NCBI GenBank assembly: GCA_905178155.1
Contig: CAJINV010000005.1
Location: 3,651,253 to 3,715,252 of the forward strand
DNA: 64,000 bases
Reading direction: 5' to 3'
From: Amoebophrya sp. A120
Taxonomy: Eukaryota > Protista > Dinoflagellata
Positions within the stretch are counted from its first letter, which is position 1; each line of letters opens with the position of its first letter. Under the pieces are notes generated by a model. The model had not been told where the DNA came from. It was given only the letters and a program-made list of their open reading frames with translations, and ran no database searches. Position numbers and translations under genes: made by a program. Positions 2,301 to 56,408 of this stretch are shown here, piece by piece.

Positions 2301-2301
2301 C

Positions 2302-12451: not shown

Positions 12452-15400
12452 TTACTCTACAAGCTCCTCCACAGCGGGAGCATCTAAAACAGCTTCCGGC
12501 GACGGTGCATCATCTACATCTGCATGGTGAGGAGTGCTATTCATATTCTGGAGTTTCATAGTTTCCCGGTCTCTCTTCATGTCGGAAGCGGGAGTGTGCT
12601 TGCGGTCTGATGTGGCACAATCATCATCTTCATCTTGTTGAGTGGGTGGAGTCTCTATTTTTATTCGTCCTGCACGTGCATGTCGTTCATACTCATCCGC
12701 ATGCTGGTAGTCCTTCTTGATTATAGACGTCAAACCAAACGCCCTCCTCATATCCTCGACCACCATCGGGTAAATGGTTTCCTTGCAGCTCATGCCCCAG
12801 GTGAAATCCAGGTGTTGGTAGCTGGGTTGAAAATCGGTTCTGGTCACGTTCGCGTCCACAGATTTCAGCATTTTCTTCAATTTGTCCACGTCCTTCGGAT
12901 CGGCAAGCGCGTCCTTACCCCCGGAATAAAGGGAAATCGTCAAGTCTCGCTCTATATGCATTGCAAAAGGAAAAGCATCTTCGTGCTCCTCGTACTAAAA
13001 GATCGCTGTCATGCACGACAAATACAATTTTCCAGGCTAAAAGAGCATGGCAATTTTCATGGGCAATGCTAATCATTTAATCGTAGTTGAAAAACAAAAA
13101 ACCGACGCTTTTGCGATTGCAATTCATATTTGACCTCCGGATTTTCGTCAAGAAGCTTCTTCTATGCATTGCAAAAGTATCGTACTCGTATAAATGCACT
13201 ACAAATTTCCTCAGCATGAGAAATAAAATTTGTACTGCAGATTTGCCTTGGAAACAAGATTTGTAATGCAAGACTTGCATTTCTTGTACGAGTACGATAC
13301 TTTTGCACAGGATATCTTCAAGCTTCCTTCCACGTCATAGGACGGCGGCGAAAGCGAGCCGTAGTGGTACAAATTCGAGATTGGCCCGTAGTCAAACTTC
13401 CGCAGTTCTCCGGATCGGACCAGATCCGCCCAGTGGACCATGTTTTTCACCGAGGTTCCACCAGGCGAGTTGTACACCATTACCGACTATGGACTGCGCA
13501 AGTATCGACGCACTGCTCGTGGTAATTATTGCAATCTCTACCATGACTAGTTATAAGTCAGAAAACCCATTATTTAATAGTATCCCGCAATAAAAACGAA
13601 CAATGAAAACGAATAACGAAAACGAACAATGAAAACGAATAACGAAAACAAAGAATGGAAACGAAAAACGAAAACAAAGAATGGAAACGAAAAACGAAAA
13701 CAAAGAATGAAAACAAAAAACGAAAACAAAGAATAGAAACGAAAAACAACAACAATGGAATGCAGACAAAGTGCCCAAGCTTCTAAGCGGCGACGCCTCG
13801 AAACGATGAGGCCTCGAAACGCCGAAGGAAGCAGCGAAGCCTCGAAGCAGCGAAGCCTCGAAACAGCGAAGCCTCGAAGCAGCGAAGCCTCGAAGCAGCG
13901 AAACCTCGAAGCAGCGAAACCTCGAAGCAGCGAAGCCTCGAAACAGCGAAGCCTCGAAACAGCGAAGCCTCGAAGCAGCGAGGCCTCGAAGCAGCGGAGC
14001 CCCGACGCAAGCAACGAAGCCCCGAAGCAGCGAAGCCAAGCCCCAAAGCAGCGAAGCCCCGAAACAGCGAAGCCCCGAAGAAGCGAACCCTCGAAGCAGC
14101 GAACCCTCGAAGCAGCGAAGCCTCGAAGCCGCAAAGCCTCGAAGCCGCAAAGCCTCGAAGCAGCAAAGCCTCGAAGCAGCGAAGCCTCGAAGCCGCTCAG
14201 CCTCGAAGCAGCGCAGCCTCGGAGCAGCGAGGCCTCGGAGCAGCGAGGCCTCGAAGCCGCGAAGCCGCGAAGCCTCGAAGCAGCGAAGCCTCGAAGCAGC
14301 GAAGCCTCGAAACAGCGAAGCCTCGATGAAGCAGCGAAGCCTCGAAGCAGCGAAGCCTCGAAGCAGCGAAGCCTCGAAGCACCGAACAAGCAGCGAAGCC
14401 TCGCTCGAACAAGCAGCAAAGCCGCGAACAAGCAACGAGGCCTCGAACAAGCAGCCAAGCCTCAAACAAGCAGCGAAGCCTCGAACAAGCAGCGAAGCCT
14501 CGAACAAGCAGCGAACCTCGAACGAGCAGCGAAGCCGCGAACAAGCAGCGAAGCCTCGAACAAGCAACGAAGCCTCGAACAAGCAACGAAGCCCCGAAGG
14601 AAGCAGCGAAGCCCCAAAGCAGCGAACCCTCGAAGCAGCGAACCCTCGAAGCAGCGAACCATCGAAGCGGCGAAGCCTCGAAGCAGCGAAGCCTCGAAGC
14701 AGCGAAGCCTCGACGCAGCGAAGCAGGAGAGCCTCGAAGCCTCGAAGCAGCGAAGCCTCGAGGCCCCGAAGCAGCGAAGCCCCGAAGCGGCGCAGCCTCG
14801 AGGGAGCGAAGCCCCGAAGCAGCGAAGCCTCGAAGCAGGCCGGTCGGTGCCAGATCACGGCAAAGCCAAGCCGGCCCCGGGTCGTGGCCAAGCCGAAGCC
14901 GGCGCCAAATCATGGCCAAGCCGGGGCCAGATCATCTCATGACAAAGCCAAGCCGGTGCCAGATCATGGCCAAGCCGGTGCGGTGCCAGGTCGTGGCCAA
15001 GCCGGTGCCAGGTGAATCATGGCCAAGCCTGCCTGCCTGTGCCCGAGCATAGCCAAACCGGTGCGGGATCATGGCCATGCCTGCAAGTGCCCGGCCGCGG
15101 CCAAGTCGGTGCCAAATCATGGCCAAGGCGGTGCCAGGTCGTGGCCACGCCGGTGCCGGGTCATGGCCGTGCCGGTGCCCGATCATGCCCAAGCCGGTGC
15201 CGGACCCTAGCCACGCCGGTGTCGGGCCCTCGCCGAGCCGGTGCCCGACCATGCCCGCCCCCCGCCGCCAGATCGCGGCCCCGCCGGTGCCAGCATGCAA
15301 GATGACGGCAAAGGCCAACCTGCCCGCCGCGCCGGCCGGTGCCGGATCGTGCCAAAGCCGTTCTCCCGCTTTGAAAATCGCCGGCGGATGGGCCTCCCTG

Positions 15401-18400
15401 TGCTGAAGCGCCGACAACGATTCTCCACAAAGAGACGCTGAGTGCTACTATTCATCTAGCGGAATACTATTAAGTCAGCAGGTTACTGGACACGGGAAGC
15501 GGGATAAGGCTAGTATTGCATCACAAATGATCTTCTCAGAATGTACAAATTCCATTTTTTCTTCTACGTGCGACGCAATGTAATTTGTTCTACGTTCGAT
15601 GCTTTTGCAATACATACTGGGACACGAGTCTTGTTCATGTTTGCGGTCGGGTCCGAATCCATGCCGACGATGTCCATTGCAAATGTGTCTGGTGATGCTC
15701 GATTGTAATGCTTGAGCACCCTGCTCTCAAGCGCAGCCACGCATGACAAATCTCTGCGCCGCCTTGTCACCCTGGGTAGCGCGCAATAGAAGCTGCGCTT
15801 TTACATGACAGACAAGGTCGCGCTTTTGGCAGTAGTCATGCAACACTTTCAGAGGCATGCAAGCCAAGCAATACAGATTCCACTTTTCCAGACCCAGACC
15901 TATTTGCGGTGGGTACACGATGAGGAACAGCAAGTCCTCGCACACCGCGGGATAGCTTTCGCACACCGGCCCAGTATCCACAGAAAATTATGTTTTGGTC
16001 TACCGTCGAGAAGCTTGCATTGCTGGTTTGTGAATCATTATGATACGCGCACTACCAAGTATGCCAACTTTTTGAGCATGCGACAGCACTTCTGCGTTAT
16101 TTCCTGCATCACAGGGTGGAAAACAAGCTGCCCGTCCTCGTGGACGTGAGTGACGAAGCTGAAAGGTATGCATACGCCAAACAAGCATGACAAATCTAGA
16201 ATCAAACTTCAAGACCTCCCAAATTACACATTCACACTGCATACCCGGCTATCCAGTGCAACAAGGGTTGATTCGGGAGGAACGCCCGGTCGCCGAACAG
16301 CTCGAACTATCAAATATAAAAACGTCTGGGTCTGGAAGATTGCAACTTGTCATGCTAAATCTGCAGCATGCAAAAATCTGTGTTGCATGCTTACCAAAAG
16401 TCGCCCAATTTTGACCAAGTCGGGAGGTGGTTTCTCATGCAGGATAGGCATTAGAAAGTTCTCGCAGAATCTGTCATGCTAGCTCCGGCATTCCAGACCT
16501 CATGGGTCATGGAAGAGCAGCATGACAAGTCGCGCATTCTTCCAGACCCAGACATTTTTACACTTGATACGAACAGCTGGTCAATGTGCAGCGCGATCAG
16601 AGAACCGACCAGCAGCGACGCCTGGTTGGCCGCGGAAGCGACCGGCGCCAAGGCGGAGTATATAACCCGCTCAGGTGTTACAATCTCAAACGTTACAATA
16701 AAGCCTGGGATTTGTCTTGCATAATGAGCATGAAAGACTCGCAGACCATTCCACTTTCTGCAACACAAATTTCGCCAGATTGTAGTGGAGTTTGGGGCTC
16801 CGGAACTTGTCATGCGCAATCCTATGAGAGTTGGGTAGATCATGCGCTCTTGCATCACAGATTTCGACACTCTATTGTAACGTTTGACATTGTAACGTTT
16901 GAGCAGGTCATAGAGTAGTGCTGGATTTTCTTCGCGAACGCCGGGCCAAGTTGCGACAGGGCGACGAACATCTGCAGAGTGCCCTGCGAGTGCCCGACGT
17001 AGCCAAGCTTGTGATCATCTTCAAGCTCCTTAGGATCGTGGTCTTCCTCTTCTTCGGAGGCGGAGCCGGAAGTCATCAAATCATGTTCGTTACTGCGCCC
17101 GCCCCGCCGGGTGTTCGCAATTATGTAATCTACAACTGCGGGGGTGTCGGATAGCGCAATGTCGTCAAAGGAGAAGTCCCAGAACTTCGAGTCTTGGGTG
17201 GTCAAATTCACGTGCTCGAGACTCCAGGTGCTGCCGCGGGTGTTGCCGAGCCAGACATCAAAGCCCTGTATCAAACAAAAAAAGTTCGTCACGATCACTC
17301 ATGCGCATTTTTGCAATACAAAACTTTCTGTCATGCGTAAAAATGCATCACAGCCAAACTTCCTTAGGGATTTCCCTAGTGTTTCTGCAACACAGAGGAA
17401 AGTTGTGATGCTAAAAAAATTTGTAATGCAAAGCCCGCAAGTTAGTGACAGTGACAAACTTTTTTCTCTCCATACCCTGATCTGCCAAGATAAACGCGAG
17501 CGACTCATCCGGTTCGTTGACCAATATGAAATGCAAAAATATCTGGGTCTGGAAACTTGCAATGCTGCGTTGGGAATAGTAAATGCCCTGTAATGCACAG
17601 CCAACCATGAGAAATATCTGCGCTTCTTTGTGTTGCGTTTCTCGCATGACAAACTGCGTCTTTGCATGACAGGCAAAAGGGTCTCTCTTTGGACACGCAT
17701 CACAAACTTTTTGGTCATGCCAGACAAGCATGACAAGTCTCGCAAGCTTCCAGACCCAGACAAATTTGCCGTTGATAACCAACCACGTTGCGCAACTGTC
17801 AAGCAGCCCGTGCTGGAGCAGGATTGGGGGCTTAGGGGTGGCTGTTCTGGATGCAGAGAAGATCGTCGTGTCTGTTGAAGTAGTAGCGCCCGTGGTCCTC
17901 GTCGTCCTGCTTGTCGTAGTAGGGACCCCGTTTTTTTGTGAAGGAGTAGATGATGTGGAGGTCGTATTTCGGTCATGTAATAGCTGGTGCTGTGCTGCTG
18001 CTACAGGTGAGCTTGCGCTTCTCTGACGCAGAAGTTCCTCGCTGTTTATTTTGCGCTTGTATTCCTCCTCTTTCTGCTGCTGCTCAACCCTTCCGTGCGG
18101 AATCCGAAACAGTGTCAGGATGTACCCGTCGCTCGTGGTAACCTTGTGAAATTCCAAGGGGTATCCCTTGGTCAAAATCAGCTCCGACGCGTTCCGATGC
18201 GCGTCGGGAATATCATTGGCCTCGGGCTCCAGTTTCTCGAGGATGGCAGACGAAATTTTCAGTGCGGCGGAAGTCGGATCTCCTTCTGCTGGAGGTGCAC
18301 CTGAAGACGAGAGGGTCTTCAAGGAAGGTCCGCTCACAGACTGTGTAGCCGCCTCTTGTGCTTCTTTGTACTTCAAGTCGAGATCGAAAAGCCAGTCCAG

Positions 18401-18808
18401 TTGCAGTGTGTGAAGCAAGAAGGTGGACCAGGTTGTGGGCACCAAAGCGGTATTTGTGCAGGCACCAGCTGCGGTGGGTTTTGACGGTGATGCTGCGACG
18501 TCAACCGTGGAGGGTTTCACGACCGCGCGGACACTCTGCTCCGCTTGTCCCTTTGTGCTCGCCGTTCTTCCAATTCTTTCTGCTGAGCCGACCGGTCGCT
18601 TGTTCTGTGACAAGAAAAACGGGAGACGAGCTCCAATACCTGTATCTGCTGACGACCTGTCCCTCTCTGGATCAACGCTTACTGCACTTGCACCAGCGGG
18701 TCGTGGTGTGATGGTCACCGTAAAGACAACAATCGAGGCGAATATAGCTACGGCCGAACGAGGCTGTGATCTCGGAAATAGAAACGGCGCTGTCATTTTC
18801 GTGAACAA
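12452..18808 (-). CDS. Acid/gastric-lipase-family alpha/beta hydrolase, 10 exons
   Basis: Motifs in order after splicing: VTTSDGYILTLFRIP, LLQHGLLDS, SLAFILADQGFDVWLGNTRG, GHSQG, ALAPVA, PGGTSVKNMVHW, GGKDALAD, YQHLDFTWG. All nine introns are TIR/direct-repeat elements. Confidence 0.93.
12955..13127. mobile_element. Degenerate introner, lipase intron 9
   Basis: TAT...ATA ends, decayed flanks (tcaaa/tagag in transcript sense). Removal gives EVKRDLTISLY in frame. Confidence 0.6.
13163..13314. mobile_element. Introner, lipase intron 8
   Basis: TIR containing tgcaaaagtatcgtactcgta, exact 5-bp duplication TCTTC. Confidence 0.85.
13590..13755 (+). repeat. A-rich minisatellite (gaaaacgaa/acaaagaat units)
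   Basis: Direct reading of the sequence. Confidence 0.9.
13790..14838 (+). repeat. Satellite of 8-bp units (cgaagcct / cgaagcag)
   Basis: About 1 kb of alternating cgaagcct and cgaagcag variants. Confidence 0.97.
14839..15360 (+). repeat. GC-rich minisatellite (gccggtgcc...atcatggccaa units)
   Basis: Direct reading of the sequence. Confidence 0.85.
15671..15915. mobile_element. Introner family 1 (decayed), lipase intron 6
   Basis: cagacccagac TIR remnant, flanks gacga/cacga. Removal gives LFLIVGMDSDP. Confidence 0.75.
15975..16243. mobile_element. Introner (decayed), lipase intron 5
   Basis: TAT...ATA ends, flanks cccag/cccgg. Removal gives HWIAGPVCES. Confidence 0.75.
16308..16569. mobile_element. 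Introner family 1a, lipase intron 4
   Basis: ~30-bp TIR (consensus tatcaaatgtaaaaatgtctgggtctggaag), exact duplication CGAAC. Orientation is opposite to the copies at 32883, 36743, 37043, 45863 and 55309. Confidence 0.95.
16661..16912. mobile_element. Introner family 2, lipase intron 3
   Basis: TIR containing tcaaacgttacaat repeats, exact duplication GAGTA. Removal gives QHYSALAPV. Confidence 0.9.
17269..17474. mobile_element. Introner, lipase intron 2
   Basis: TIR tat...aaaaaagtt(c/t)gtcac, exact duplication CCCTG. Removal gives ADQGFDVWLGN. Confidence 0.9.
17525..17777. mobile_element. Introner family 1b, lipase intron 1
   Basis: tctgggtctggaa TIR, exact duplication ACCAA. Removal gives ATWLVNEPDESLAF. 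Confidence 0.92.
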
Positions 18809-20286: not shown

Positions 20287-20778
20287 TTACCGCGTGGTTC
20301 CGTAGCCGTAGATGTTCTTGCCCTGCAGTTTCAGTGCGTTAATCACCTCGTTGGTCCTCACGGTCGCTCGGCCTTGGTGACTGGTCAGAATGTAGGTCTG
20401 CTCCGTCACTTTTTCCAACCACTGCTGGAACGCCAAGCGGATGGGCTGGTAGATCTTCGCACTCACGCGTCGGACGCCGCCCCGTCTTGCCAACCGACGG
20501 ATGGCGGACTGTGAGTCGTTTTTGGATAGGATAATTTCCCCTGGGTTTGTGGCGCTGTGCTTGCAACACTGATGTTGTTTTACAGTGTAGTTCCAGTTCT
20601 TGAGTAAACGTTAACGCGTCCTATTCTGACTACCTCATGCTCGTACTTACCGCAATATCGTGAGAAAAAACCTATGTGCAGGATAGAGCAACAGGAAAAA
20701 TAAACCCTACCTTGCAGAGATTGTCATGGACAACTTCTTGGACACCAACGTCATCGGGCCGCTTTTTCCTCCTATCAT
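20287..20778 (-). CDS. Highly divergent histone H4-like protein (5' exon structure uncertain)
   Basis: SAIRRLARRGGVRRVSAKIY...ATVRTNEVINALKLQGKNIYGYG aligns without gaps to the H4 fold. Possible first exon MIGGKSGP... at 20778. Confidence 0.85.
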
Positions 20779-21449
20779 GAGTAAAAACGTACCCACACCA
20801 GAGTCAGGATGGGGATTTTGCAACACAAACCTAGGAGTCTTGTGAGTCACGCGTGACAAGTTGCACTCTGCAGTGTAGTGCAGGTTAGCGAGTGCAGCCG
20901 CGTCACAGATTCATCTGCTCATCCTGTTCACAGCATCACAAATTCCAAAGCACGATTGGAAATGGCTCTCATGGGTATGCGCATTACAAGTCTTCCTGTC
21001 TTTGCAAATCTGCATTACAACCCTGGCGTGGGTACGTTTTTACTCAGGATACCTCCCCGTTTCCAAGTTCAGCTGGTTCAAATCCTCCCCGGCGACCAGG
21101 GTACGTATGGTAGCAAAAATTTCTCGAAATCTCAACCTTATCTACCACGACCAACAGATCAACACCAGAGTACTAAAGGTCATGACGGCATTTGCTGCTT
21201 TGCGAGGCCGCGATGCGTAAAAAACGTCGCAGGAACTACTAGTACTACGCGAGTCATTTTTGAGAGAATAAAGGAGCGAGACATTGACTTCGACATCTAC
21301 TTTGCAGCAAAGCCCAATAACACGCTCACCATAAGGAAAGGAGCATTCTTCTATCTGGATTTAGTTTCGCACTATTCGTGCAGAGGTAGGGAGCATAGAG
21401 ACATCAGGGCGCAAGAACTACTTAAGGATCACGATCAGGACATGCATAC

Positions 21450-23830
21450 AAAAATCGAAAATTTTGCTATCATAACTTTCTGCAGAAAATGATTCCCCGC
21501 ACGGTAACTGTCGTTCTCAAGCTTCCACTTCTTCAGGTACATCTTGATTTCCTGAAAGGATGGATGTTGCAAGAAGGGTTATAGAAGTTTAAAAAGTATA
21601 AAAGTTGGAGACACAGTAGTGAGTTTTCGCTTCCTGCTGCACCACCTGTGTCTGCTACTGCTACTCAGACTTCTCACCAACAAGAAGTATAAGAATCGAT
21701 GTACAAAAACAGCAAAAACAAGTTCACTGACTTTCTCGTTCACGCGTTTTGTTTCTACCATGCCCACTAGCACAGAAATAAACAATAGGGCGGTAAAATC
21801 GGAAGCAAGAGGGGCTTGAATCTGTATACATTCATTTACCTTCCACTGCTCCTTCGTGATGGCCTGTCCCGTTGGGTCTAGGATGAACAAAGGTGGGTTA
21901 CATTCGTCTGACCCTAACCCCCGCTAGTGCCCACCCACTAGCGGGGGTTTATGTACTGGAAGAGACCAAAATAAAGCACAGAGAAACTTCAAATTTTCAG
22001 GAAAGGAGTGTGGAGAACCAACTAGCGGGGGTTAGAACTTTTTGGAAAACAGACAACCTAACCCACCCTTGTTCGTCGGATCCAAATCATGGCGCTTCAC
22101 ATCGCCGGGTGGGCTCCGGCGATCAGGGTCGGCGAGCCTCCAAAGACATCAACTACAGAACAGATCTGCAGCGTACCACCCAGAATAAAATATGCCACCA
22201 TGGTATGGGGCGCGGATTAATATCGCGCACCAGGCCATGCTGCAGAGCCCTACTCCCGACGGAAAACTAAAGGGCTACAATGCGAATTTCGCACCCGCCA
22301 TGCCGCGCGAAGGGTGAAATGGGACTGGGCATAACAAGTCACGACACAATACCTTGAGCCAAAAGCCTCCCACTGCAACACGCTTGACATCGATTTCATA
22401 ATCCACAAGTCTCAATAAGCGACGCTTCAGGTTGACATCAGTGCACTGAATGCCGAAAACCTGTCGCGCCAGATCTGCACACACTTAATTGAGACTTGTG
22501 GACTACAAGATCAATGTGTCAAAGCTTGCGATGTCGGCACTTTGGCTCAAGGTGCAATGGCGTGAGTTGCTACGCCCAATCCCTTTTCACCCCTCACGCG
22601 GATTGACAACCACAGCGACGCACCCAGGGGCCGCCCGCGTGGAGGACACGCATGCAGGAATTTTTGGCCCCCTAGATACAACCGGAAAAGTGCTTTTCTG
22701 TTCCCTCACCACGAGCGGCTTTATCCAGCATTTTACTTCTCCATGTGATGCCGCTTTTTCGCCTTGTTTCGCGCCCTAGTTTTTCTGTTTGTGATTTTTC
22801 AAACCGAAGCAACTGCCACGACCTACTTGCGGCCCCGCTTTGCCCTTTGGTTTTTGCGCTGGAACCCGCGTCAAAAAGTAGAATTGTGACCCCGTGCGTA
22901 AATTGAGGCTTTTGAAGTACCTTCCACTGCTCCTTCGTGATGGCCTGTCCCGTTGGGTCGCACAAGTCTGCTTCGTACTTCATTTTTGATTTTTTCTCCC
23001 ACAAAGATTCGACCGGTCCGTTTCTGTTTTTCTGCCTTCGAATCTCGTTGTTGTAGGCGTCGAACTGGTATGCAGCGCAAAAGTGTACTATCGTGCTCGT
23101 ACTTTGTTTTTGCAATGTTACTGCATGACAAATCATCTTCTTCTACTACCTCGCGTGAGACACAAATGCCATTTTTCTCTCTGTAAAAATTTGTGATGCA
23201 AAAAATCAGTACTAGCGCAATATTACGTTTGCAATGCGTAACTGGATTACAAACTCGTTCTTGTACTTGATCTCCAGCATTTTCGAAAACGTCGCCAGCC
23301 ACCACATCCGGTAACTAAACTCATGGATTCCGGTATGCTTTTGGATGTCCTTTTCACCATTACAGAAGTTTTGTTTCGAAACTTTCTGAAAGAAAAGGTA
23401 TCGTCCATGTACTTAGGTAGGTTTCTGCTCTTGAAGAAAGTTGTTGGCTTGATGCATTTAGACGAGGAAGATGGTTCAATATCTTCATGGTTGAAGATGA
23501 TTCCTTTGTTCTCAAAAATGCAACGTAATGTAGTTCTCGGATGGTGAAAAACATCCAATCGCATATTGGGTGCACGATCCAAAAGTTTGCGCTTGGGTCT
23601 GTTTTGATTATTTTTGTTTCGAGGGACGACGAGCGCAAACATTGTAGTGCTGAGTTACAGGATACTATGCAGGCAGAGCGGCAACAAAAGCAAAAGTATT
23701 GACGATGAAGTAGATGATCCGTATAATAATGTACACCAACTTTACCCTCTTCCACGTCTCCGAGGTGTAGAATTGCAACGACTCGTATCCTTTGGAAACT
23801 CGCCCAAGCCGACGAAGCCTTCATGATCAT
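21450..23830 (-). CDS. Possible multi-exon gene of unknown function, interrupted by an intronic insertion
   Basis: Exon-like ...KYEADLCDPTGQAITKEQWK|gt joins in frame to cag|EIKMYLKKWKLEND. Limits are uncertain. Confidence 0.35.
21879..22917. mobile_element. 1039-bp composite insertion between identical 42-bp direct repeats
   Basis: 21837-21878 equals 22918-22959. Contains a ~200-bp foldback (21880-22081) and a ~300-bp imperfect palindrome (22303-22601). Confidence 0.8.
22530..22588 (+). ncRNA. SL-RNA-like cassette (degenerate); inverted partner at about 22316-22374 on the minus strand
   Basis: gatgtcggcactttggctcaag matches the dinoflagellate SL at 16 of 22 bases, is followed by GT and then a ccctttt tract 29 nt later. 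Confidence 0.4.
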
Positions 23831-25099
23831 GAATAAACAAGTACTAGATGTAAAATTATAACTTTATTTTGTAGTGCAACGAACTGCTTGTTCTTCTGCT
23901 TACTCACTTACATCATTGTATTCAATTGAGGGCTTCATCCGGCGATGGCGCAGATTTTCTGTTGGATAGCTCGTAGGCAGTTACGCGAATCACCAAGATC
24001 CCCGATGGGTTTATAGTGAGGAAAAACACGGACACGAACAGGCATCCCTCTTCACTGAGTCACATGCATGACAAGACGTTTGGCGTTGGGACCTTCATCT
24101 CCTTCCCCACGAAAAATGATCTACAAGCATCAACTAGGCACCGGAAATTTTCACGCTGCTCGGAGTTGGAGTCTGCGCGACTGCTTGCACTGCTTCTATT
24201 TTTTACCAAAGGGCAATAATCTTGTTTGCGAAACAAGTCGTCGCGTGCAGGCAGTTGTTCGAGTGAAGTACTGGATGCAAGGGCGCTAGAAGTTTCTTCT
24301 TCACATAGTGGCGATTCTGGTACAGTACGGCTTCAGCTCCTCTGTAGGCTGCGGCTCCTCCACGAAACCAAGCTGTGGCGTTTTTTGAGAATTGAATTTG
24401 AAATCAAAATCGAAATATTAGATTATAGTTCCGCTCTGCAAGAACATTGTCGGTTTCTTTTCGTTACCACCGTGTCTGGTCTACTTCCGCTTCGTTCTAG
24501 TTCCGTGCCAGTTCTACTGCCTTTGCGGCGCCGTGTTCTTGGTACTCAAGAACATGGTGGAACAAACATTACTACACTGTAAATGCTCCTGCTATTGCTT
24601 CTCTATAAGTTGTAGCTTCCAAGTCTTTGAATGTCCTATTCTATCTGGATATTGTTCCATTGAACTACGTCATCTCATCTCGAAGAAGCACTAGAAACCT
24701 TCCTGGGATCCCCTGGCATCGTTGACTGGGTAAACTCCAACTTAGTTCTTCTATGCAATGCAAAAGCTACAGATACAGTGTTGTTCTCGCCTTCCCTTTT
24801 CGTGCCTTTGTCGCGCCGTATTCTGTGTCGTTGTATTGTGCACTGCAGTAATTGCCAATAATGCCAGACAGCGACGTCATCTGCGCCGAGTTGGCGCTAC
24901 AACTTGTTCCTGTCATCCTCTAACAGCAACATTGTGTTTTCGACGTTTGTTGCAAATTTCTTTCACCTCGTTCTTCATACTCCCGGTTCGTTGAGCTGTA
25001 ATTCAAAAATGCACCGAGCTAGCTACGACAGCTTGATGGGCATCAAGCCTCGTACGAGGGGTAGGTAGGAAACAAAGAGGAGCAGCACTGTATATAAAT

Positions 25100-28000
25100 C
25101 GAAATATTTCCAGTTGGATACTTCGCCTTGAGGAACCCGGGGTTCGGATACCGCTCTACCGGGTGTATCAGCGGCCCGGCGATGCCGAACGGCGTGCCGC
25201 CGGCGGGCATCTTCGCGCCCTTCGCGACGGCCTTCTTCTGTGCGTAGTCCATCTTGTAACTCCCGCCACCATACATGCTGTAGGGGTCGCCAAACGCCGT
25301 GTTGCCCGGCGTGGGGGTGTTAAACTTGTTGAACGAAGAACCCGAAGACGCCCCACTCGATATGTTGTGACTACTCCCCGTGGCGCCGCCCGTCATACCG
25401 GGGTAGTACTGCCCGCCCCGGTGTTGGTTGTGGAACATGGCCTCGGCGGAGGAAACCTCGGACGGCGTATTGGGCATGTGCTGGCCGCCGGGCTTCATCC
25501 TTATGCAATACAAATTTACTCCTGTACACATACTACACGACCACGCGCCGACGTACAGAGAACTACATCATGACGATTGATTTTGCGAAGAACTTGTGGT
25601 TTACAGTGCTGTCTGCAAGAACGCTTGCACTTGTCATGCTTTACTTGGGTAAGGCCCGCAGCTTCTGTGAAACTTTTAATCGCGCAGCACATTCCTTGTT
25701 TTAAGCCTTCGAATGCCTAATCTAGGAAATCGCGTTCATTAGGTTTAAGCATTAAAATGCCTAAACTAAGAAGTCGCAATTTAAGCACTCGAATGCTTAA
25801 ACTCACGGAAACGCGGATTGCAATTTGCTCTAGCAAATTTTCGTTGCGTTCCTTCCGAGTGTTATCCAGAGCACACACCCAAGCGGCCCATTGGACCGCG
25901 CCTATTGGGGCTGGGTCAAGCAGGCCGTGCCTAGCTTCCGTAGCGGGGAACGGCCCACTCCACCACCACCTGGCCCCCAGGGCAAGACCCCCCAGAACCC
26001 CACCACCGGTGGTTGAATGGGGGGAACCGCGCCAGCCCCAGCCCCACTTGCCCCCACGGGGAAGACAGAAACAAGCGAAGCGGTATGCGTAGCAGGACGC
26101 GCCCCGCTGACGCCAAAACTTGATATCAACAGCGGCCACAGCAGTCCCCGTCGCGGGCTGTGATTCCCGACACGTCGTTTGGAGAAGCAGCACTGCCTAC
26201 AAACGGGCGGCAGGAGCGAGAAAAGCCGACCAGGAAAAGTGTGAGCGCGCGAGGAAGCGAAAACGTATACACGGAAGTAGACCCTTACGCTTCAGCACCA
26301 AATCCGCAGTAGACAAGAAAAGTGCGCCAGTGAAAACCCCTGTTCGACCCCGGAGGCACAAGCACCCCCATAGCAAGTTCCGGCACGACCATCCGGGTCA
26401 AAAATCACCAAGCGCCACCTATCACCAGAGAAAGTCAAAACCAAAGGTCGCAGTGACAGCGTTGTGGCCCCAAAGAGCATCCCCCCGAACAAGCCCGAAA
26501 CCCGGAAACGTCGTCCCCTACTAGCCCCCTTTGAGAGAAAAAGCAAAAGAAAAAGCAGTCCGCTGGGTAGCAAGACTTAGTCCAGTGTGGCGGCAAAGCG
26601 TCACCATCCCCCGGCCCTGAGTATAGATGCGGCCCTACGCACCAGTCCCCTCCCGGGACCTCCTATTTCCACATCTAGGAAAGCATGTCCCGCAAACACA
26701 GCGGCAATTGGCGGCGAGGTGTCGGCGGCAGCACCCTGCCGATAGGGATTGTCTTATCCACCACAGCCTGAGACAACAGCAACAGAGGACTACGAGGTAG
26801 TCGGCCGCCCCCACCTGAAGCAGAACCTGGCTCCCCCCAGGAGCTTGTGGTTTAAAGTTTGATTTTACGAAGAACTTGTGGTTTAAAAAAGTGCTGTATG
26901 CAAGAACACTTGCACTTGTCATCAAAATAGGATTTTTGAAAGCCAGTTTTAAGATGCAGAAACCGCATCTGCACGTCGTGTAGCTAGTCGTCCGGAAATA
27001 AACTTACTGTGGATAATCTTGTATCGTTGCGCACTGTACTCCGAGCCGGGCGTCCCGTCGGAGTCCGCGCCGCCGCTGGACAGAAAACTCCCCGGGGGCA
27101 TGTTGCCGCCACCTTTTGTATTAACATTCAAGGCGTGTGCTAATAAATCTAAACTCATTACAAAAATCTCACATGATCTGAATCAGATTTTCTTTGCATC
27201 GTTGTCACTGTCGTGCACAATCGGCATCTTCAGTCACGTCTTGGTGAGAGAGGTGGCCGTGGCGGTGGCCGGATGTGAGGGCACCCTCACATCTTTCCTG
27301 TAGTTGAAGAACGACCAGCAATCGTATAAACGAGCTAAAGTATTCAAAACTACACCATTATGATACCGAGTAAGTTCCCGCGGTAAGATCCGTCCGAAGC
27401 TCCATCCGAAGCGTTGCCATCCCCTCCCATGTTTATTCTCTTCGCACTCCCCGACCCCGACGAGGGTGTGCCACCTTGGTCGGAATAGATCCGACCCCGT
27501 TTATTACTTCTCTTGTTCTTATACTTCGCCTGTGGCTCGTCCTCGTCCTCCGAATTAAATCCCTTCGCCCTATTAAACAAGTAAAGAAAGATAAGCGACA
27601 TAATTTGTTCTCTAGTAGAAAGTCATGTAGTATAATTTGGTCATGTGGACAAGGAACTACTCCTGACATCACACCCGACTCGATAATTTCGATGCTTCGT
27701 CTATACGTCTGCGTATGTGCAATATGAAAACAAAATAAAAATCTAGTACATTTTGTCGGGTAAGTCGACGGACTTTGGCTTTTTCTCGGTGTATGGGTCG
27801 TCCGCACCGTCCCATTTTTGCCGGTTGTGATGCCCTTTTACCTGTTTCTATCCTCTGCAAAAACATCTGTATCGTCACAGCGACCCTCGTTGTACGCCTT
27901 GCAATAGTGATATATGTTGCTGAAGACAGAGGTAAGACCGTTTTTGTCCAAAAGATCTCCATGCGGTCTCGTTCTATTTGTACATATTCCGTGTCTGTGG

Positions 28001-30468: not shown

Positions 30469-30917
30469 TTTTGTGCTTTATTTGGTCCTTCGTGTTACCT
30501 CACTTCGTTACAGCTCATAGCTCATCTCCACTAAAACTAATGGACAAAAATGCTCCTTGTCCAGATCTTCAATTTTATTCGACTGCAGTGAAAAAAACTC
30601 TTCTTCCTGTTTTTCCGCCCTTTTGTCTTGGTTTAAAAAGAGCATAATTCTTTTAGCAATGCAGAGGACGAGGCGCAACAGTTTATCAATGCGGCGGATG
30701 TTGAAGGGGGGAGCAGATTGGAGAACATAAGTGGTACTACTTGCAAGAGACGACGACTTTCCTCAGAAAATCGATATATCGACTTGATGTCCTGCATGAC
30801 GCCAGCAGGCTGCGTCGTCTACTCATTGTCTCAGAACACCAAATAATTGGATAGAGATACTGAGCTCTCAAAATCGGGCGTGAAATACAAAATGTTCCTA
30901 GAACTACCAAATATAGC

Positions 30918-43166: not shown

Positions 43167-46100
43167 CTAGGGAGGCGGTTCTCCATCTCCATCTCCGCCG
43201 CCTCCTACAACGTCCCCGTAAAAGTACACACCCATTACCCCCAGAGCGATTACCCCCAGGAGGAGGCGAATGCTGTTGGTTGTGTCTACGCCAGTATCAA
43301 GAAGAAAAATCCCCCCTCCCCATATCGAAAACGTATCCGTCTGAAAATTTGTGATGCGCATTTGTGACCTCAAATCCTGTCTGTCTTGCAAGAAGGCAAG
43401 TCCAGAAAGCGTTCCGCATTTTGCAGGCGGTTTGTGATGCTGTTTGGCTTAGAGCATACACGTGTGTCATGCTAGGCGCCTACGTCTAAACCTCTCGACT
43501 GAGGCTTGACATATGCCAGCATTCCTCTACTGCAAGACAAATCTGACTTGTGTATGGAAATCCAGCATCAGAAACTTCGTTTCGATATGGGGAGGGGGGA
43601 TTTTTCCTTTTGATAGCCAGCAAAACTAGCCATGCCCTCGTCCGCCGTGTTCAAACGGTATGCAAGCGGAAACGGAGTCTTTTTTCAAGTTGAGTCAAGT
43701 AAGGTCATCTTGAAAGTGGAATAAATATTTCTTGTTCTTCGTGAACGTGACGCTGGTGGCGTTCTTACAACAGCATTTACTATACATGGTGAATTATATC
43801 GTACCCGAGAAATTGGACAGACCAAAATCGTCCAAATGACTCAACCTCCGGAGGACAAATTCTCCCGCCATCCATACACTTGTACTCTTTCCCGCCACGA
43901 CCGGCTTGAGAAGGCAGCAGATTTCCTTCGTGCATTCGCGGTGCGGCTCGCAGGGCTGGTCTAGAAGAAGTTCTTCGTCCACCGAGCAATAGTTCTCCAC
44001 GACCGGAAGCAGGGACTCGCACAAGAGCATGCAGCAAGTTATCGCATCCTTTTGTGTGTCCCGTGCAAAAGTTGCATCGTCGTGCCAGCGAGAGCAGTCG
44101 TACAATACTGCATGACAAATCTATTCCCCGTCGCCTCTCAACCTGTACATGACCTGGGACGTCGAAGTAGAACGATAACAACTTAATTCGCATTTCGTGT
44201 CTGATGATCTGTTTTATATGCAAAACAATACGCCTCTAGCCTCATCCAAATCTTTTGCAATGGATACTCTGGCACACACTCATGCGACGCGCACGTGGGA
44301 ATATCCGCCTCGGGACCTTTATGCAATACAAATTCCGCTGACGCTGTGCTTAGCTTGTACCTACCAGGGCGCGGAGGCGGAAGTACAATCTGTTTGGCTG
44401 CAGTGCTGGCAACCCAACAAGTTGCTCCAAAATACTAGACATTAACTTCCATTAAAAAAAGCGAACTGTGTCAGAAGACAAGCCTGGGCTGCATGCGAAA
44501 CCAACCTGTAGTTTAACTTTTATTAAGTTTCTGTGTTGTAGTAAACAAATTAAGCGCAACAGTACAGCGGTATTGAATTTCCCTGAGATACCCATTCACC
44601 TCGTCATACTCACGGAGAACTTGCGTGGCTTGGGTGCCTGTGAGTGTTGTTTCGTCCGCTCCCGCGCTCTCTTCCTCTTCTTTCACTTGCTCGGCGGTTC
44701 GGTTCACGCATATGTCTGCCTCTGTTTGGGTCTTCGCGGAGGTCAACATCGCGTTGCTGCTGGACGAGGCGAGTCGGGACAACGAAGACGGACCGGAAGA
44801 TCTATTGCTTGTGGTCTCAGTTTGTGCTACAACTCCGGGTGTCGTCGATGTGAGATGAATACTATGAGCAGGATCAACATCAACATCAGCACCATCATCA
44901 TCTCCTACTCTCGTGGCAGTGCTTGTACTACTGGCACCATCGGCCGTCGGCGTCGACGTGGTCAAGGACGACGCTGCGCTGATGCGAGTATCGGGAATAT
45001 TTTTGCTCCTGCTTGTGTCCTCGCCTACTTCTACCACATCATCTGCATCAAAACCATATCGTCCTTCGTTCCCGTGGCCTATCGCGGGACTCACCCGCCG
45101 GAGCCGACGCTCCGAAACCGAAGCAGAGGTGGGGGCAGACGGGGTAACAGAGCCTCCGGCCGCAGCTTTGTCGTCTGCAGGAGGTGGACCAAGAGTCAAA
45201 ATGTAGTCATGTTGCTCCGCTTGTTGCAATACATCATCTGGGCGCCGTTCATCTCGCTCTCGCTCGAAGACCTCTAGCCTCGTTGGAGAAGGTGGCCTTG
45301 ACGCAGCTGGCCGTCGTGCTGTGCCCCGTGTTCTTGCCATGTGGCTCGTCCTGCCTTCTTTGTGATAAAATGAACTTGCCGCGGAAAGGACAGAGGCTGA
45401 CGCAGCTCCTGTTGACAATGCACTGCTACCCAGCGAACTGCACTTCTTCTTACAGATTGGTATGTCTGCGTCGTTGTTTCGGAGTAGATATCCGTCCTCA
45501 CACGTCTTGCAGGCGTGCGCGCCCTGGGCCGGACACTTTTCCCCCTCCGCGCCCGTTCCGCGCGGGCAGGTGCACGTCTTCTTCTCGCACGCTTTGGAGT
45601 CTGGGTTCAGCTCAAAGCCCGCGTTGCAATCCTCGGTGCATCGCTCCGCGCCGTCCTGGTCACAAGCTACCGCGCCGGCCGCGACCGCGTGACCATGGAT
45701 GCAGATGCACTGGTTGGCCACGCAGACCATGTCCTCGTTCAGATGGTACCCGTCCGCGCAGTCGGTGCAGCGCGACTGGCCGTCGCCCGGACACGACGTG
45801 TGCCCGAGGGCGACCGGCGTCCCGTGGTCGCAGACGCACTCGACTTGCTTGCAGCATCTGAGTATCAACTGTAAAAATGTCTGGGTCTGGAAGAGTGCGC
45901 GATTTGTCATGCTGCTTTTCCATGACTCATGAGGTCTGGAATGCAGGACCTAGCATGACAGATTCTGCGAGACCTTGCTTTCCAATGCCTATCCTGCATG
46001 AGAAACTACCTCCCGACTTGGTCAAAACTGGACGACTTTTGGTAATCATGCAACACAGATTTTTGCATGCTGCAGATTTGGCGTGACAAGTTGCATTCTT

Positions 46101-49100
46101 TCAGACCCAGACATTTTTACATTTGATACTGGGGCGGTCCGCGGCGGTGCAGGTTTTTCCGGCCGCCGAGCAGAGTATGGGGTTCTCAATTGTTACATTC
46201 TCAACTGTTACATGAATTTGTGATGCTAAACCGACCGAAACCACAAACGCAACCCATAGGGCACCTTTCCGCAGATGGTCAGGCCACCGGGTCGCGGAGA
46301 ATTTGTGATGCAAGAATAGCAACACGAAAAGGCCGGAAATTGCAACTCTTGCATTACAAATTCGACACAGATTCCCATGCTCTTTAGCGCTTCCAAAATT
46401 TGTCATGCGAGGCAGCTTCACTGTGTGGACGTTGGTGCTCATTTTGCATGACAAATCATGTAACGGTATGAGAATGTAACAGTTGAGAACGCCATACAGA
46501 GGGTGAGGGCCTTCGAAACATCGTAGGTCTGCCCCGCCTCGCACTGCAGTTTCGTCGCCAATATCGTAGAATCGTGCCACTCGCTGCAGGTCGCGATCGG
46601 GGTGGCGCAGAGGGCATAGGCGTTGTTCGTCCCGTCCTCCCACGTCACCTTCTTGGATGTGCACTTGAAACCAGGAGTCGAAGACGAAGATGTCGAATCC
46701 ACATTGACAAAATATGACGCGGCGAGGAAATTGTCTGGATCGTTATTGTTCGGAAGAATAGCGCAGCCGCCGCCGATAATGTAGGTGTGCCTGGGACAAC
46801 TAACGGTCCTGGTCCACCATGACGTGTCGTCGCCTGCCGGATGACCTGGGGGGTTACTGGTTGTTAACTCTTCCTTGAAAACGTACCGTCCAAAATCGGA
46901 CCGGACGCAAATAGCCACGGCCGTCATGGTATCGATAGAAGAAGGACATATCTGTTGGCATTTCCACCCTTCTACTTTCGGCCGCGTCTCCTTCAGATAA
47001 CAGTTGGAGGAACTCGAGATGTAGCAGCCGCCGCCGACCACCTCCGTGCCCGTCGGGCAGTTCATTTCGACGCTGAGTGCGGTTTGCGAAGTTTTTCGGT
47101 AGGAGGAAGGGGAAGTCATTTTGCCACCATCTTTCACCGCGTCCGCCACACACACGCCAACATCACGAAAAAAGGCTGTCGCGGCGGTCTCAACCCTACT
47201 TCGCACAAAACCTTTGTCTTATCAGACGCACAAGTAGAAAACACATATGAGATGCGCATTTGCATTTCTTGCAACATGTCGTCGAGAATGATGACAGAAA
47301 GAGTCTCGCCGGTCGCGGAAGAGAAAGAATGTGAATGTGCGCATTACAAGTTGAGACTGAAACATTTTTTTCTCGCGATAACCGGCCCCGAACATAAAGT
47401 CCATCGCGTCCTTGTCGTTTGCGCTGGCGACGCGGCCAACGGTGTACTTCCCTTTATCCCCTGACTGCTCGGCGTCTGGGGCGCAGGCGGTGAGCCCCAA
47501 GTCCCCGTCAACCACATTCAAGCTGGCGCGCCCGCACGCTAGGCCCAGGGCAAAGCGGCCGGCGCCCTCGCAGCTTTTCGAGGACCAAATTGCGGCGTTG
47601 TCGACGCTATCGTCTCGGCGCCACTGAAGCGTGACTGGCATCCTGTACTAGAAAATCTATTCTTCCAAAGGCCGATCTTCGCATCACGGCAGGCATACCT
47701 GCTTACTACTACTTCATCTACTTACAACTCATACTGACAATCGTATCAAAGCATCAAATTATGTTGCAGCTGCAGGACGAAAAATAGAAAATAAATCATG
47801 CACGACTTTCAAGAATTTCGTTTTTGCCTGCATGTTCGCTCTCTTGCAGATCAAATTCAAAGCATTCGCGATCAACGTGATGACGTTAGATTTTCCGCCG
47901 GGGCGTGGGCGTTTTCTTGCCGGCCCCGGCCTTGAGGTCACCGAGCGGCTCTAACCAGGGAGTTTTCTTGCCATGCATCGCGCAAAACGACCGGCAGTTT
48001 TCAAGCGGGCGGAAGTCTTTTTTGACAAAAAATATTTTCAATTATCAAGCGGCTTTGGCTGTGTCGGCACCGAATCGCCAGCGGATTCTATCGATCGCCG
48101 CTGGGTAAAACGACGCAGGGGAGCCGGCAAAAGGGGCGCCCTTCTGAGGCGCCCACCGCCTTGGTTTCTGGCGGTTTGGGGCGCCCAAAAAGGGACGCGA
48201 AAAAAACGCGCCCAAAATCAGAACAGCGAAACAGCATGGCACGGGCGCCATACAGCTCTTCTGCTGCCGCTAGCAGTTCCGGGCGGTAGTCTTTGCCAGG
48301 TTTTCCGGATCGGAAGCCCCTGGTATTCAGGACGAAGAGGGTGAGAGGGAACCTCTTCTCATCGCTTTTGACCTCTATGAGCGGCGGCTGGATGCAGCGC
48401 TGGTCTAACTGTTCCGTAATCTTCTGGCTGGATGATTTCGAATCCATCTCCTCGAAGCGGGTGCGTATCTGTAGTTTCTCCTCGTCGCTGATGGTGGTTA
48501 CTACGTCATGGTGCTGTTGCCACCAGCCTCCTTTGGTGGTCCTCGAGATGGCGAAGGGCAGGCCGTCGCGCCAGAATATGCTGCCCTTGTTGACTGCATC
48601 CGCCAGATCTACGAGGAAATTGGTAGCATCCCGAGGAACTGGTGCTGCATCATACTGTTCGCCATCTTGTTGTGCATCATCAACTGGTTCCCGAACATGT
48701 TTGGCGCCATCATGTTCGCCTGCATGTCCGGCCCCATCATCGCGTTCGGTAGCAATGGGGGGAGGTTTTGGTAGGTGTACTGGATCGTCGGTGTTTGCGT
48801 CTGGAAACCGCTTAGGAACTGGTCCACTTCTTCTTCCTCGGGCGACTGGTCTTGGATGGGGGTGGATGTTTTATTCCAGAGCGTCGCGTTGCCCCCTGCC
48901 CATTCGTCCAGGAAAGAAATCACCTGCTGGTCTGTGATGCGCGTGTCCTTGTACTTCCCCTCTCCTTTGATGAAATCTCGGGCGACGGCGTAGAGCCTGT
49001 CTCTTCGGTGATCGTCGGTCATGATTTGAATTTGAAACTTATAAAATAATTTTGCTGCGAAAAACACCGTGAGAGCGGAGAGCCGATAGCATGAAGAGTC

Positions 49101-53877: not shown

Positions 53878-56408
53878 TTAAAACTTCTGATGGTCAAACT
53901 GGTCCACCGTGATCTCGCCGTTTTCCTCCTTATACACATACACGACCACCTTTGCGTATTGTGAGGAAAAATCCCCCCTCCCCATATCGAAAAGGTACGT
54001 AATTGGCAATGCTGATTTGCGACCACAAATCATCTCTGTCTTGCAAGAAGGCAACTTCACAGGCTCCGCCGCTTTATGAAGGCGGTTTGTAATGCTGTTG
54101 GGCCTACAGCGCAGACGTTTCTCATGCTAAGAGCCCAGCCCAAAACCTCTCTGCTCAGGCTTGGTATGGGCCTGCAGTCCTCTCCAGCAAGACAAATCTG
54201 ATGTGTGTACGCAAATCCAGCATCACAGACTTCGTTTTGATATGGGGAGGGGGGATTTTTCATTTTGATATTGCGCCCTGCACCGCCATCAGCATGAAGC
54301 TTGGTGTGGACTGTCCCATGGCCGGTAAGGGCGCAGGAGCGGCGGGCACCGCCGGCACAGCAGAACCATCCTCCGGTGGATTCTGTTGCATTACGTCGGC
54401 CGCCACATCGAGATTTGCTATCTGTTCTGTGACCGCATTGACTGCGGGGTCGGTAGCTGCGGGTGGCGGAGGTGGTGGCGGAACACCTTGTTCACCAGGC
54501 GCACTGTCTTCACCTGCAACGACCGGAGCAGCAGCTGCGACCTCGGCAGTCATTTTTTTCATGCCACTCGGCATTACGGCGTCAGCCGGGTCTGCTGCCT
54601 CACCCTCGGCTTTCGGAGCTTTCGTCACTTCAGCTCCTTCCGCGGTAGGTAGTGACGATGTGGTCTCGTCGGATTTACTTTCTGTTCCTTGTTGTTCCGC
54701 CGGGGTGTTCGTTTCAGCTCCCTCCTTGTTCGTTGCAGCGTCAGCTCCTACTTCCGCCTTTGCATCTGCTTCTTCTGCAGCAGTTTCAGCACTTTTGTCC
54801 TCCCCTGACGCAGCTGCTCTTCCGTTTACGACCGTCGCTGCCTCTCCTTCCGGTCCTGCAGCACTGGACTTAGACCCGGTTTTATTCAAGTTCGCCACTG
54901 TTGCTGCACTCTCCGGTGGTCCACCGGCTGCACCCGTCGGACTAGGTTGCTGCACGGCCGTCGCTATCAAATGCAAATATGTCTGGGTCTGGAAGACTGC
55001 GAGATTTGTCATGCTAGTCCGGCATGACTCTGCACTCTGTATTGCGTGGCCACCAAAAGGCCCTCTTGCCTGTCATGCAAAAGCGTAGTTTCTCATGCGA
55101 AATACGCAGCACAGAAGCACGAAAAAACTTGTCATGCTTGGCGCCGCATTACAGAGCACTTATTGTTCACAGACTTGCATCACAAGTTTCCAGACCCAGA
55201 CATATTTGCAATGCATAGTCGCCAGCAAGGCCCGTGCCGCGTTCGCGAAGTCGTTGGCGAAGAGCTGGCTGACGTCGTAGTGCTGCGCCGCCCCGGTCGC
55301 GCTGCCCGTATCAAATGTAAAAATGTCTGGGTCTGGAAGAATGCGCGATTTGTCATGCGGCTTTTCCATGACCTGTGAGGTCTGGAATGCAGGACATAGC
55401 ATGACAGATTCTGTGCGATCTTATCCATGCCTATCCTGCATGAGAAACTGCCTCCCGACTTGGTCAAAACTGGACGACTTTTGGTAATCATGCAACACAG
55501 ATTTTTGCATGCTTCAGATTTAGCATGACAAATTGCATTCTTCCAGACCCAGACATTTTTGCATTTGATAGCCCGGGTTCAGAAACAACTTGTTTTCCAA
55601 GGCGAAGCACCGGGCTTCGTGCGTGTGCCCGGAGATCAGCACGTCGCAACCGAGCTTGCGCTGCCACTGGAGCAACGCGGCGTCGGATTTCCAGGGGAGG
55701 ATTTGGTATCCAAGAAAAAAAATGTTTTAGTGTAACTTTGTGTTGCAGAAAATGCAAAACTGCTACACTTGTCATGCTGGACATGCATCAGAAGCAACTT
55801 TCGTACGTGCTTTCACGTACTAGCTTCGCATGACAGGTTTTCTGTGTTATGCAGAGCAAACTTGTGATGCTATTCCTCCAAGAAACTTACACTCACACAG
55901 TTCTTTTCCTGCGTATTTGGTACCCGGAAATCATGCCCACCTTAAACGCGCCCACCTCGACCACGAGCGACTCGGGGAGTTCGCGGCCCAGGATCGCCTT
56001 GTCATCTGATTCGCCGCGGACGCAGTGGACTTCGTGACCTGCAGGTCGTGGTGGGGAAATTTGCAATGCCAACACCCTTTGCAGCGAAGAAGAAGCTTCG
56101 TTCCTGGTGAAAAAATAAGTCCTGCTTGGCAAGGACCGCTTGCGCTCCGCACAGCATCTAACTGAGCATAAAAACAACACCTGCCTCCGCGCAACATCAG
56201 CTTTTACAAACAAACAACTCTACTTTTTTTTACCTAGCCCCTGCAATCCATCCAACACGGCTTTGCTACCGCAGTTGCCCGTGCACAGCACGATCTTGAT
56301 TTTGTCCGTCTGCAGCAAATCCTTGAAGCATTCGGGAAGGTCGCGGGTTCGCTGCGGTATGTGCTGGTCGCCGATTACAAGCACGAGATCGCCAAACTCG
56401 AGAGACAT
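53878..56408 (-). CDS. VPS29: Retromer subunit Vps29 with a large low-complexity insertion, 6 exons
   Basis: [70 protein letters not shown]. Confidence 0.95.
53957..54270. mobile_element. Introner family 3 in VPS29
   Basis: Family-3 TIR, exact duplication TTGCG. Confidence 0.93.
54965..55217. mobile_element. Introner family 1b in VPS29
   Basis: Family-1 TIR, exact duplication GTCGC. Orientation is opposite to 17525-17777. Confidence 0.93.
55309..55570. mobile_element. Introner family 1a in VPS29
   Basis: Near-perfect TIR, exact duplication GCCCG. It splits the NPGS motif. Confidence 0.95.
55707..55915. mobile_element. Introner (decayed TIR) in VPS29
   Basis: Exact duplication TTTGG. Removal gives GYQILPW. 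Confidence 0.85.

Follow-up and report, generated by a model that had tools for sequence, protein, structure and literature searches.

One cut position fits the placeable junctions of TAT...ATA introner elements in a contig of Amoebophrya sp. A120

Introners of the dinoflagellate Amoebophrya sp. A120 have been described as elements with inverted repeats of TAT, seven nucleotides and an A-run, bounded by direct repeats of 3-5 nt (5 bp in the legend of Fig. S19); the published text also gives lengths of ~240-260 nt, many families, some GT-AG members, co-oriented genes and RNA-supported removal (PMC7789003; PMC12130899). Families with terminal inverted repeats (TIRs) are listed for A120 (PMC12130899; 2 of 118 Amoebophrya rows), while the text of PMC7789003 treats the splice position as variable and unknown, with the mechanism left open. 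Here we analyze a 64,000-nt stretch of contig CAJINV010000005.1 (assembly GCA_905178155.1, positions 3,651,253 to 3,715,252), referred to as the window, whose genes, all on the minus strand, are interrupted by many such elements. An earlier note, made from the sequence alone, had assigned them to this published class with an open removal mechanism and proposed that their boundaries follow the element ends rather than dinucleotides. Both statements hold. The class is not new, since end consensus and repeats match the published A120 introners, and all junctions that can be placed agree with a single cut that, read along the transcript, falls 1 nt ahead of TAT and 4 nt beyond ATA. The detail added to the literature is this fixed register, N-TAT...ATA-NNNN. 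The published text, as distinct from its figures, is without a fixed 1/4 register, AG skipping, two-orientation splicing or an internal 9-mer, and no statement of a fixed register was found in the literature on Amoebophrya splice positions, whose figures and some supplements could contain it.

Related systems are known from several lineages. The nonconventional introns of euglenids share an origin from elements with TIRs and target-site duplications (TSDs), paired ends, fixed offsets, slidable borders and an open mechanism, but they display N3-CDG...CH'G-N5-6 followed by a purine, whereas the elements here, in an unrelated lineage, read N1-TAT...ATA-N4 with no exon base preference (texts of PMC12501133 and PMC11282704). 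In Fritillaria borealis, non-GT-AG introns derived in bulk from miniature inverted-repeat transposable elements (MITEs) prefer the ends AG-AC and AG-AT and coexist with a retained U1 and a changed U2AF; the elements of the window show no such end preference, and U1 has not been detected in A120 (texts of PMC13326754 and PMC11282704). Introners of Micromonas, Aureococcus and Symbiodinium are likewise non-autonomous TIR elements with TSDs whose removal restores the mRNA, but they carry or co-opt canonical GY/AG sites and are hence target-dependent, unlike the elements described here (text of PMC9860276). MITEs in general have TIRs, a TSD of fixed length, no coding capacity, many copies and subterminal repeats, all of which recur here; the difference is that the present elements are spliced from RNA.

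Removal from likely mRNA in a single register

At least 37 TAT...ATA elements, recognized by a motif scan and RNA joints, lie between 12955 and 55915, and eight more at 260-11375, in an upstream tandem gene array, bring the total to 45; elements are named below by their first position. Removal was read from the RNA-like contigs of runs X3-X6 (two samples, one study), which are treated as likely mRNA because ordinary GT-AG introns are precisely absent from them and two intron bins have no coverage. The comparison covered the window outside 12400-15300 and 30600-36400. Loss of the element plus 5 nt has two-sided support at 24 of the 37 elements, 20 of which are not GT-AG, and one edge at a further five; nothing is visible at eight. 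The 24 comprise 10 direct joints (among the joints listed, with 13 of 28 outside that list), one loose-end junction, one exactly predicted retention contig and 12 cases by arithmetic, which fixes only the summed length per element group. In two long contigs the record positions fit the spliced model at 10/10 points, covering 10 more elements, and one 42-nt contig gap accounts for both 45863 and 46176.

The elements are thus absent, to the exact base, from likely mRNA assemblies and present in DNA. Contigs of the DNA run X1, at depth ~40-45, carry them with 0 differences; when depth is summed over the element bins, X1 values rise by orders of magnitude, which is what genome-wide repeats should give. 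The outcomes that would have told against RNA removal were looked for and none was seen: there is no main retention and no use of nearby GT-AG sites, and the DNA contigs keep the elements. Excision from DNA by a transposase in expressing cells, with RNA copying the empty allele, would suit the transposon anatomy; rare empty sites are possible, 667 joints lying beyond the matches listed, and X1 may be the window's own source. Besides the intact X1 contigs, however, elements 44320 and 47161 each sit within one unbroken DNA contig, retained forms occur in the RNA-like runs, and a cut placed unevenly (1/4) at symmetric ends is in keeping with a single-stranded substrate. We consider DNA excision very unlikely.

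The register was read from informative junctions, in which the two repeat copies differ so that the RNA shows which copy is kept; a perfect repeat allows six slide positions instead. Fourteen such junctions were available: eight direct joints, one loose end, one bubble and four piece edges, two of which assume removal of 5 nt. A cut displaced by one nucleotide (k=1) fits 14/14, and k=0 and k=2 fit eight each; were registers uniform, the k=1 result would have a chance of ~4e-5. Element 21106 has no repeat left and gives a zero-slide joint with TT...TA ends, and the register still holds.

Strong hairpins combined with short repeats are the usual setting for reverse-transcriptase template switching, and junctions of this origin would be artefacts formed across hairpins between direct repeats. 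The evidence comes from assembled contigs only. Against such an origin stand joints that share no base (21106, 24752), mismatched repeats, the single fixed register, the removal of weak-hairpin elements, and the predominance of removal, which recovers conserved proteins; template switching is accordingly given very little weight.

A partly retained form was observed for 15671, whose terminal triplets are both mutated (TAC...ACA): a contig predicted at 15643-15946 was seen there in all four RNA-like runs. Its depths were 9.7 versus 28.3, 4.2 versus 16.8 and 8.3 versus 30.5, compared with 8.8 versus 246 at 23334. The end-mutated element is possibly spliced less efficiently, which is only a hint because contig depth measures poorly.

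In this register the donors (n=44) are GT in 18 cases, CT in 14, AT in seven and TT in five, and so read N-T, while the acceptors comprise 14 different dinucleotides. The set therefore does not display the GT/GC-AG ends of major (U2) introns, and by comparison 10/12 ordinary introns here begin GTA. The earlier note had presented the elements as introns without GT-AG. This stands for the seven it had named, none of which is GT-AG at any slide, and in 33/37 no slide that yields the same product as the in-register cut gives GT-AG; it does not stand for 20773, 24752, 28361 and 29330, which are readable as GT-AG, all four in this register. For 16661 every slide indeed lacks both GT and AG, and the same applies to 36743, 41260, 43295, 53957, 55309 and 55707.

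Five GT-donor elements have an in-frame AG directly after ATA, 3 nt upstream of the cut. It is passed over for a non-AG end in 13488 (loose-end consensus) and 16308 (length arithmetic), and for the distal AG in 20773, 24752 and 28361. A residual spliceosomal preference was suggested by the window itself, with G at -1 in 20/39 elements and AG in 8/39 (p 0.005 and 0.002), but was dropped for want of replication in 78 copies elsewhere (see below).

Minor-spliceosome (U12) donors have T-A-T at +2 to +4, and U12 introns tolerate varied end bases and set the acceptor by distance. A diverged U12-like spliceosome would thus find N-TAT at the donor in 36/39 elements. The minor-intron donor consensus is RTATCCTT, from which the elements depart: only 7/39 continue as N-TATCC. 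They are also spliced in both orientations, a further point against a U12-like route. An expansion of U12 introns from TIR elements is reported in Physarum (text of PMC11282704), but the text of PMC7789003 reports that none of U11, U12, U4atac and U6atac was detected in A120. Removal by such a machinery appears improbable.

Element ends, families and orientation

The catalogue of 37 combines the RNA joints with a looser scan and with a motif model derived from 20 elements. The element scan itself required TA(T/C)...(A/G)TA ends, an exact 5-bp repeat and a TIR of at least 12/22, and retrieved 17 pairs against a mean of 0.69 and a maximum of 3 in 100 shuffles; 16 of the 17 stand. With the TIR filter off, 40 pairs were found against 37.9 in shuffles; the signal is thus carried by the TIR, as TA ends with a 5-bp repeat alone occur at chance level. 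Candidate 24197-24614 passed the TIR scan and was rejected as chance, and candidate 39197-39477 was rejected since an unbroken RNA-like contig crosses it.

Elements measure 152-369 bp, apart from two enlarged ones at 13488-15616 (2129 bp) and 25502-27015 (1514 bp). The anatomy and the two enlarged copies given by the earlier note are borne out, whereas its count of 29 and its range of 150-340 bp were too low and too narrow. Likewise, the TAT...ATA ends are as it described and the 5-bp repeat is perfect in 18 of the 37 in-range elements (also 18/39 in the end-statistics set) and imperfect or absent in the rest. All families have a single end consensus at both ends, TAT-S-N6-AAA: TA opens the 5' end in 39/39, and A occupies positions 11-13 in 30-37 of 39. 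Inverted repeats at both ends, a 5-bp direct repeat, the TAT-N7-A-run consensus and division into families are the features of the A120 introner class, and TIRs, a fixed TSD, lack of coding capacity and multiple copies are those of MITEs; the elements possess all of them and are likely non-autonomous DNA transposons. No transposase match was found in the window's inserts and open reading frames (ORFs) or in 384 kb of loci from another assembly, no Pfam domain in the nested insert of 25502-27015 (6 of 18 listed ORFs scanned), and no match in an Rfam scan.

At least three TIR families had been claimed; two are clear multi-copy families, beyond which there are a related subfamily and two weak pairs. 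Family 1 (16308, 32883, 36743, 37043, 45863, 55309) is 72-92% identical, with 15671, 17525 and 54965 as its subfamily, and Family 2 (29330, 43295, 53957) is 72-79% identical. Reverse-complemented, element 16308 matches 45863 at 91%; the removal of both shows that a single family is spliced either way round.

The family-1 end was found at 130 listed loci of one other assembly (L001-L130), none of them orthologous to a window locus. They hold 134 elements, of which 114 have a perfect 5-bp repeat. Among the 123 ordinary-sized copies, 78 received an orientation from a codon model that had the window as its training set, the 45 of ambiguous strand being left out; 46 run one way, 31 the other and one is ambiguous. 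Scored with the same codon model that set the strand, 71 junctions are coding-like on the gene strand versus 31 on the opposite strand. Two individual copies deserve mention: that at L067 1428-1689 combines a mutation of its last base with a perfect repeat, and that at L026 3001-3972 is enlarged to 972 bp with no ORF above 86 codons.

The window contains 51 copies of a 9-mer (TTGTSATGC or complement), where ~1 would be expected. Forty-five of these hits fall inside elements (30 of the 45 elements), often ~40 nt from an end. Its presence in both orientations suits a DNA-binding site, for which it is a candidate. Occurrences outside catalogued elements, at 44110, 51859, 51892 and 52078, lie in intron-like stretches, and these sites may be decayed elements that are now GT-AG spliced.

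Candidate machineries at the element ends

We favour, at a probability of roughly 0.55, the reading that these are non-autonomous DNA transposons whose ends guide a modified spliceosome to the 1/4 cut. A transposase encoded elsewhere would insert the elements and duplicate 5 bp, possibly docking on the shared 9-mer often found ~40 nt inside each end. Once transcribed, the ends would form a stem or act as a repeated end motif and in that way take the place of recognition by U1 and of AG. The element's T and A would occupy donor positions +2 and +3, a fixed distance would place the acceptor, and the invariant A at -7 would be a candidate branch point. Because one repeat length is removed, neither the insertion site nor the orientation would matter for restoring the mRNA.

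Several observations favour a spliceosome. The register puts the element's TA at the T and A positions of an ordinary donor, the GT-AG members are all in register, and a probable hybrid intron at 44108-44267 combines both types of end. U2, U4, U5, U6 and most spliceosomal proteins are reported for A120 with U1 undetected, and the top 9/9 non-canonical classes of Table S4 have T at +2, which may partly reflect aligner conventions (PMC7789003). Tunicates give a precedent for an altered spliceosome (text of PMC13326754).

Other findings weigh against a modified spliceosome or against the evidence on which it is built. The active site of the spliceosome relies on the first and last bases of the intron, and here the first base and the last two are free; in-frame AGs are skipped at GT donors though the same cell splices ordinary GT-AG introns. 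The 78 oriented copies have G at +1 in 25/78, G at -1 in 25/78 and AG in 8/78, with no excess. Predicted end pairing is weak in 11/37 folded elements, five of them non-canonical with RNA support, and a strict terminal hairpin is unsupported as a requirement, several of the weakly paired elements being spliced. The register is set by a single junction at only two sites, one of which is GT-AG, and in one-strand genes transcript polarity is confounded with chromosome strand. The RNA status of the runs is a guess that concerns two samples from one study, and the raw RNA runs X9 and X10 placed 214 and 3 reads, on element sequence alone. About 195 X9 reads match only element 36737-37006, with loose ends that are mutual reverse complements, and may represent a fold-back product or come from a copy elsewhere.

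A non-spliceosomal machine, either an endonuclease with a ligase or a second ribonucleoprotein, might instead read the paired ends as a ruler in the manner of Euglena. It would explain the lack of base preference at +1, -1 and -2, the ignored in-frame AGs and the indifference to orientation. Predicted end pairing, the feature shared with euglenid nonconventional introns, is strong in 26/37 folded elements versus 0/11 ordinary introns, in a folding set that comprised all but the two enlarged elements and six array copies. In Euglena, offsets are fixed from a paired motif and the authors suspect distinct factors (text of PMC12501133), and euglenid circles are reported (text of PMC11282704). On the other hand, the offset coincides with T+2/A+3 of ordinary donors, a ~1-in-6 chance if arbitrary, and the GT-AG members and probable hybrid suggest a continuum, hybrids being described as rare in Euglena (text of PMC12501133). 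The missing U1 of A120 (PMC7789003) and the different Euglena signature also speak against it. This explanation is possible but doubtful, and it keeps that standing because G+1 and AG are dispensable and even skipped. If it were correct, and we would put it forward only tentatively, Amoebophrya would have a second nuclear mRNA-splicing chemistry that takes the ends as a ruler (-1, +4), ignores GT/AG and renders any TAT...ATA insertion silent either way round, a convergent twin of the Euglena system.

The outcome is informative in either case, as a spliceosome without G+1 and AG or as a second splicing machine, and 13488 and 16308 are natural contests between a canonical AG and the ruler. A fixed rule indicates where a lariat branch or circle junction should be sought and which bases to mutate, and guides annotation of tens of thousands of slidable introns. 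It also accounts for the ability of a transposon to enter exons anywhere and leave the protein unaltered.

Host genes, individual elements and nearby repeats

The elements were said to interrupt conserved motifs of lipase, RER1 and VPS29 genes and to lie always in coding regions. Pfam, PDB and spliced models agree that removal restores these frames, three more frames open after removal of each element and 5 nt, and all catalogued copies fall within modelled reading frames, the modelled frame being the basis for 43295. All elements are on the minus strand, and the predicted intron runs from element start-4 to end+1.

The acid-lipase gene (12452..18796, minus), whose frame opens after element removal and whose stop was read from the sequence, has nine elements. 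Its modelled stretch encodes 770 amino acids once elements and 5 nt are removed versus 466 unspliced, contains the GHSQG, ALAPV, ADPKD and HLDF motifs, and matches Pfam PF04083 and PDB 6v7n/1k8q. Elements 12955..13128 (repeat 2/5; motif scan) and 13163..13314 (perfect repeat; TIR scan) fit the spliced model, the RNA-like contigs being silent. Element 13488..15616, with a ~1.9 kb tandem-repeat enlargement, has a GT donor, skips the in-frame AG and uses a CG end according to loose-end consensus in X4 and X5; the 13-, 16- and 22-bp tandem arrays nested in it at 13589-15256 do not prevent removal in register. It is followed by the partly retained 15671..15915, by 15975..16243 (repeat 4/5; record-position arithmetic) and by 16308..16569, a Family 1 member inverted relative to 45863 and 55309 (arithmetic, family alignment). 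Element 16661..16912 is CT...CT in register (arithmetic), 17269..17474 has a perfect repeat and corresponds to a 45-nt gap in RNA contigs, and 17525..17777, of the Family 1 subfamily with a perfect repeat, is supported by RNA-like contigs and the spliced model.

An 807-amino-acid gene (20287..30468, minus) has 21 introns, 15 elements and six ordinary GT-AG introns; its product has a low-complexity N-terminus and a divergent histone-H4-like C-terminal end (Pfam hits below cut-off). Direct joints were observed for 20773..21051 (GT-AG in register; joint 20767-21052), 21106..21474 (no repeat, setting the register alone; 21101-21476), 23069..23240 (perfect repeat, 5' end TAC; 23062-23240), 23334..23565 (repeat 3/5; 23328-23566), 23786..23968 (4/5; 23781-23970), 24012..24307 (2/5; 24006-24308), 24752..25120 (GT-AG in register, zero slide; 24747-25122), 25502..27015 (enlarged by a nested insert; 25496-27016), 27849..28118 (4/5; 27843-28119) and 28180..28333 (3/5; 28174-28334). 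Arithmetic supports 28361..28628 (perfect repeat, GT-AG in register), 28680..28979 and 29035..29246 (4/5 each). Element 29330..29668, of Family 2 and inverted relative to 43295 and 53957, can be GT-AG in register (RNA-like contigs, spliced model, family alignment), and 29866..30113 (3/5) has piece edge 30113 plus arithmetic.

Family 1 element 32883..33148 lies inside RER1, where Pfam profile positions 71-104 and 104-158 abut across it (TIR scan, profile search), and 36743..37004, also Family 1, lies inside a CCCH zinc-finger gene (TIR scan, frame model); RNA-like contigs are silent at both. Family 1 element 37043..37305 has a single RNA piece edge at 37306. Silent in RNA-like contigs are 41260..41417 (perfect repeat, weak TIR; TIR scan, present in DNA contigs) and Family 2 element 43295..43615 (TIR scan, frame model). 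Outside the 37, the frame model alone indicates a probable extra element without repeat at 43659..43991 and the probable hybrid intron at 44108..44267, with an element-type GT donor and an ordinary AG acceptor. Element 44320..44590 (repeat 3/5), within one X1 DNA contig, has piece edge 44592 in X4 and leaves an out-of-frame AG 1 nt upstream unused. Family 1 element 45863..46128 (4/5) and 46176..46496 (perfect repeat, weakly related to 16661; also frame model) share the 42-nt gap, which lies in an X4 contig, and 47161..47380, ending TAT...ATG (a G-U pair would remain), has piece edge 47156.

The VPS29 gene (53878..56408, minus; 425 amino acids, PDB 2a22 match) has four elements: 53957..54270 (Family 2; piece edge 54271), 54965..55217 (Family 1 subfamily; piece edge 54959), 55309..55570 (Family 1) and 55707..55915 (perfect repeat), the last two from the TIR scan and frame model with RNA-like contigs silent. 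At 54271-54959, ~230 low-complexity residues are inserted between its conserved motifs.

The array at 1-12700 contains four tandem gene copies with long near-identical blocks and, by sequence and frame model with RNA-like contigs silent, two elements per copy (260-474, 570-780, 3987-4213, 4309-4515, 7214-7433, 7529-7747, 10835-11061, 11157-11375). The array gene carries what we take to be an EF-hand-like stretch. The lipase 3' end recurs in the array, and the paralogous elements there have diverged in their repeats.

Other repeats occur nearby. A 1.37-kb GT-AG intron at 21552-22920 holds a 42-nt exact copy of the upstream exon end and donor (21837-21878 = 22918-22959) and, at 22303-22601, an inverted-repeat element without TA ends but with 61-nt arms. 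An intergenic repeat of 320 bp at 31311-31629 and 47933-48251 is 91% identical, inverted and of high X1 summed depth. Finally, identical 48-nt sequences at 47849-47896 and 49296-49343 are possible traces of a larger mobile element.

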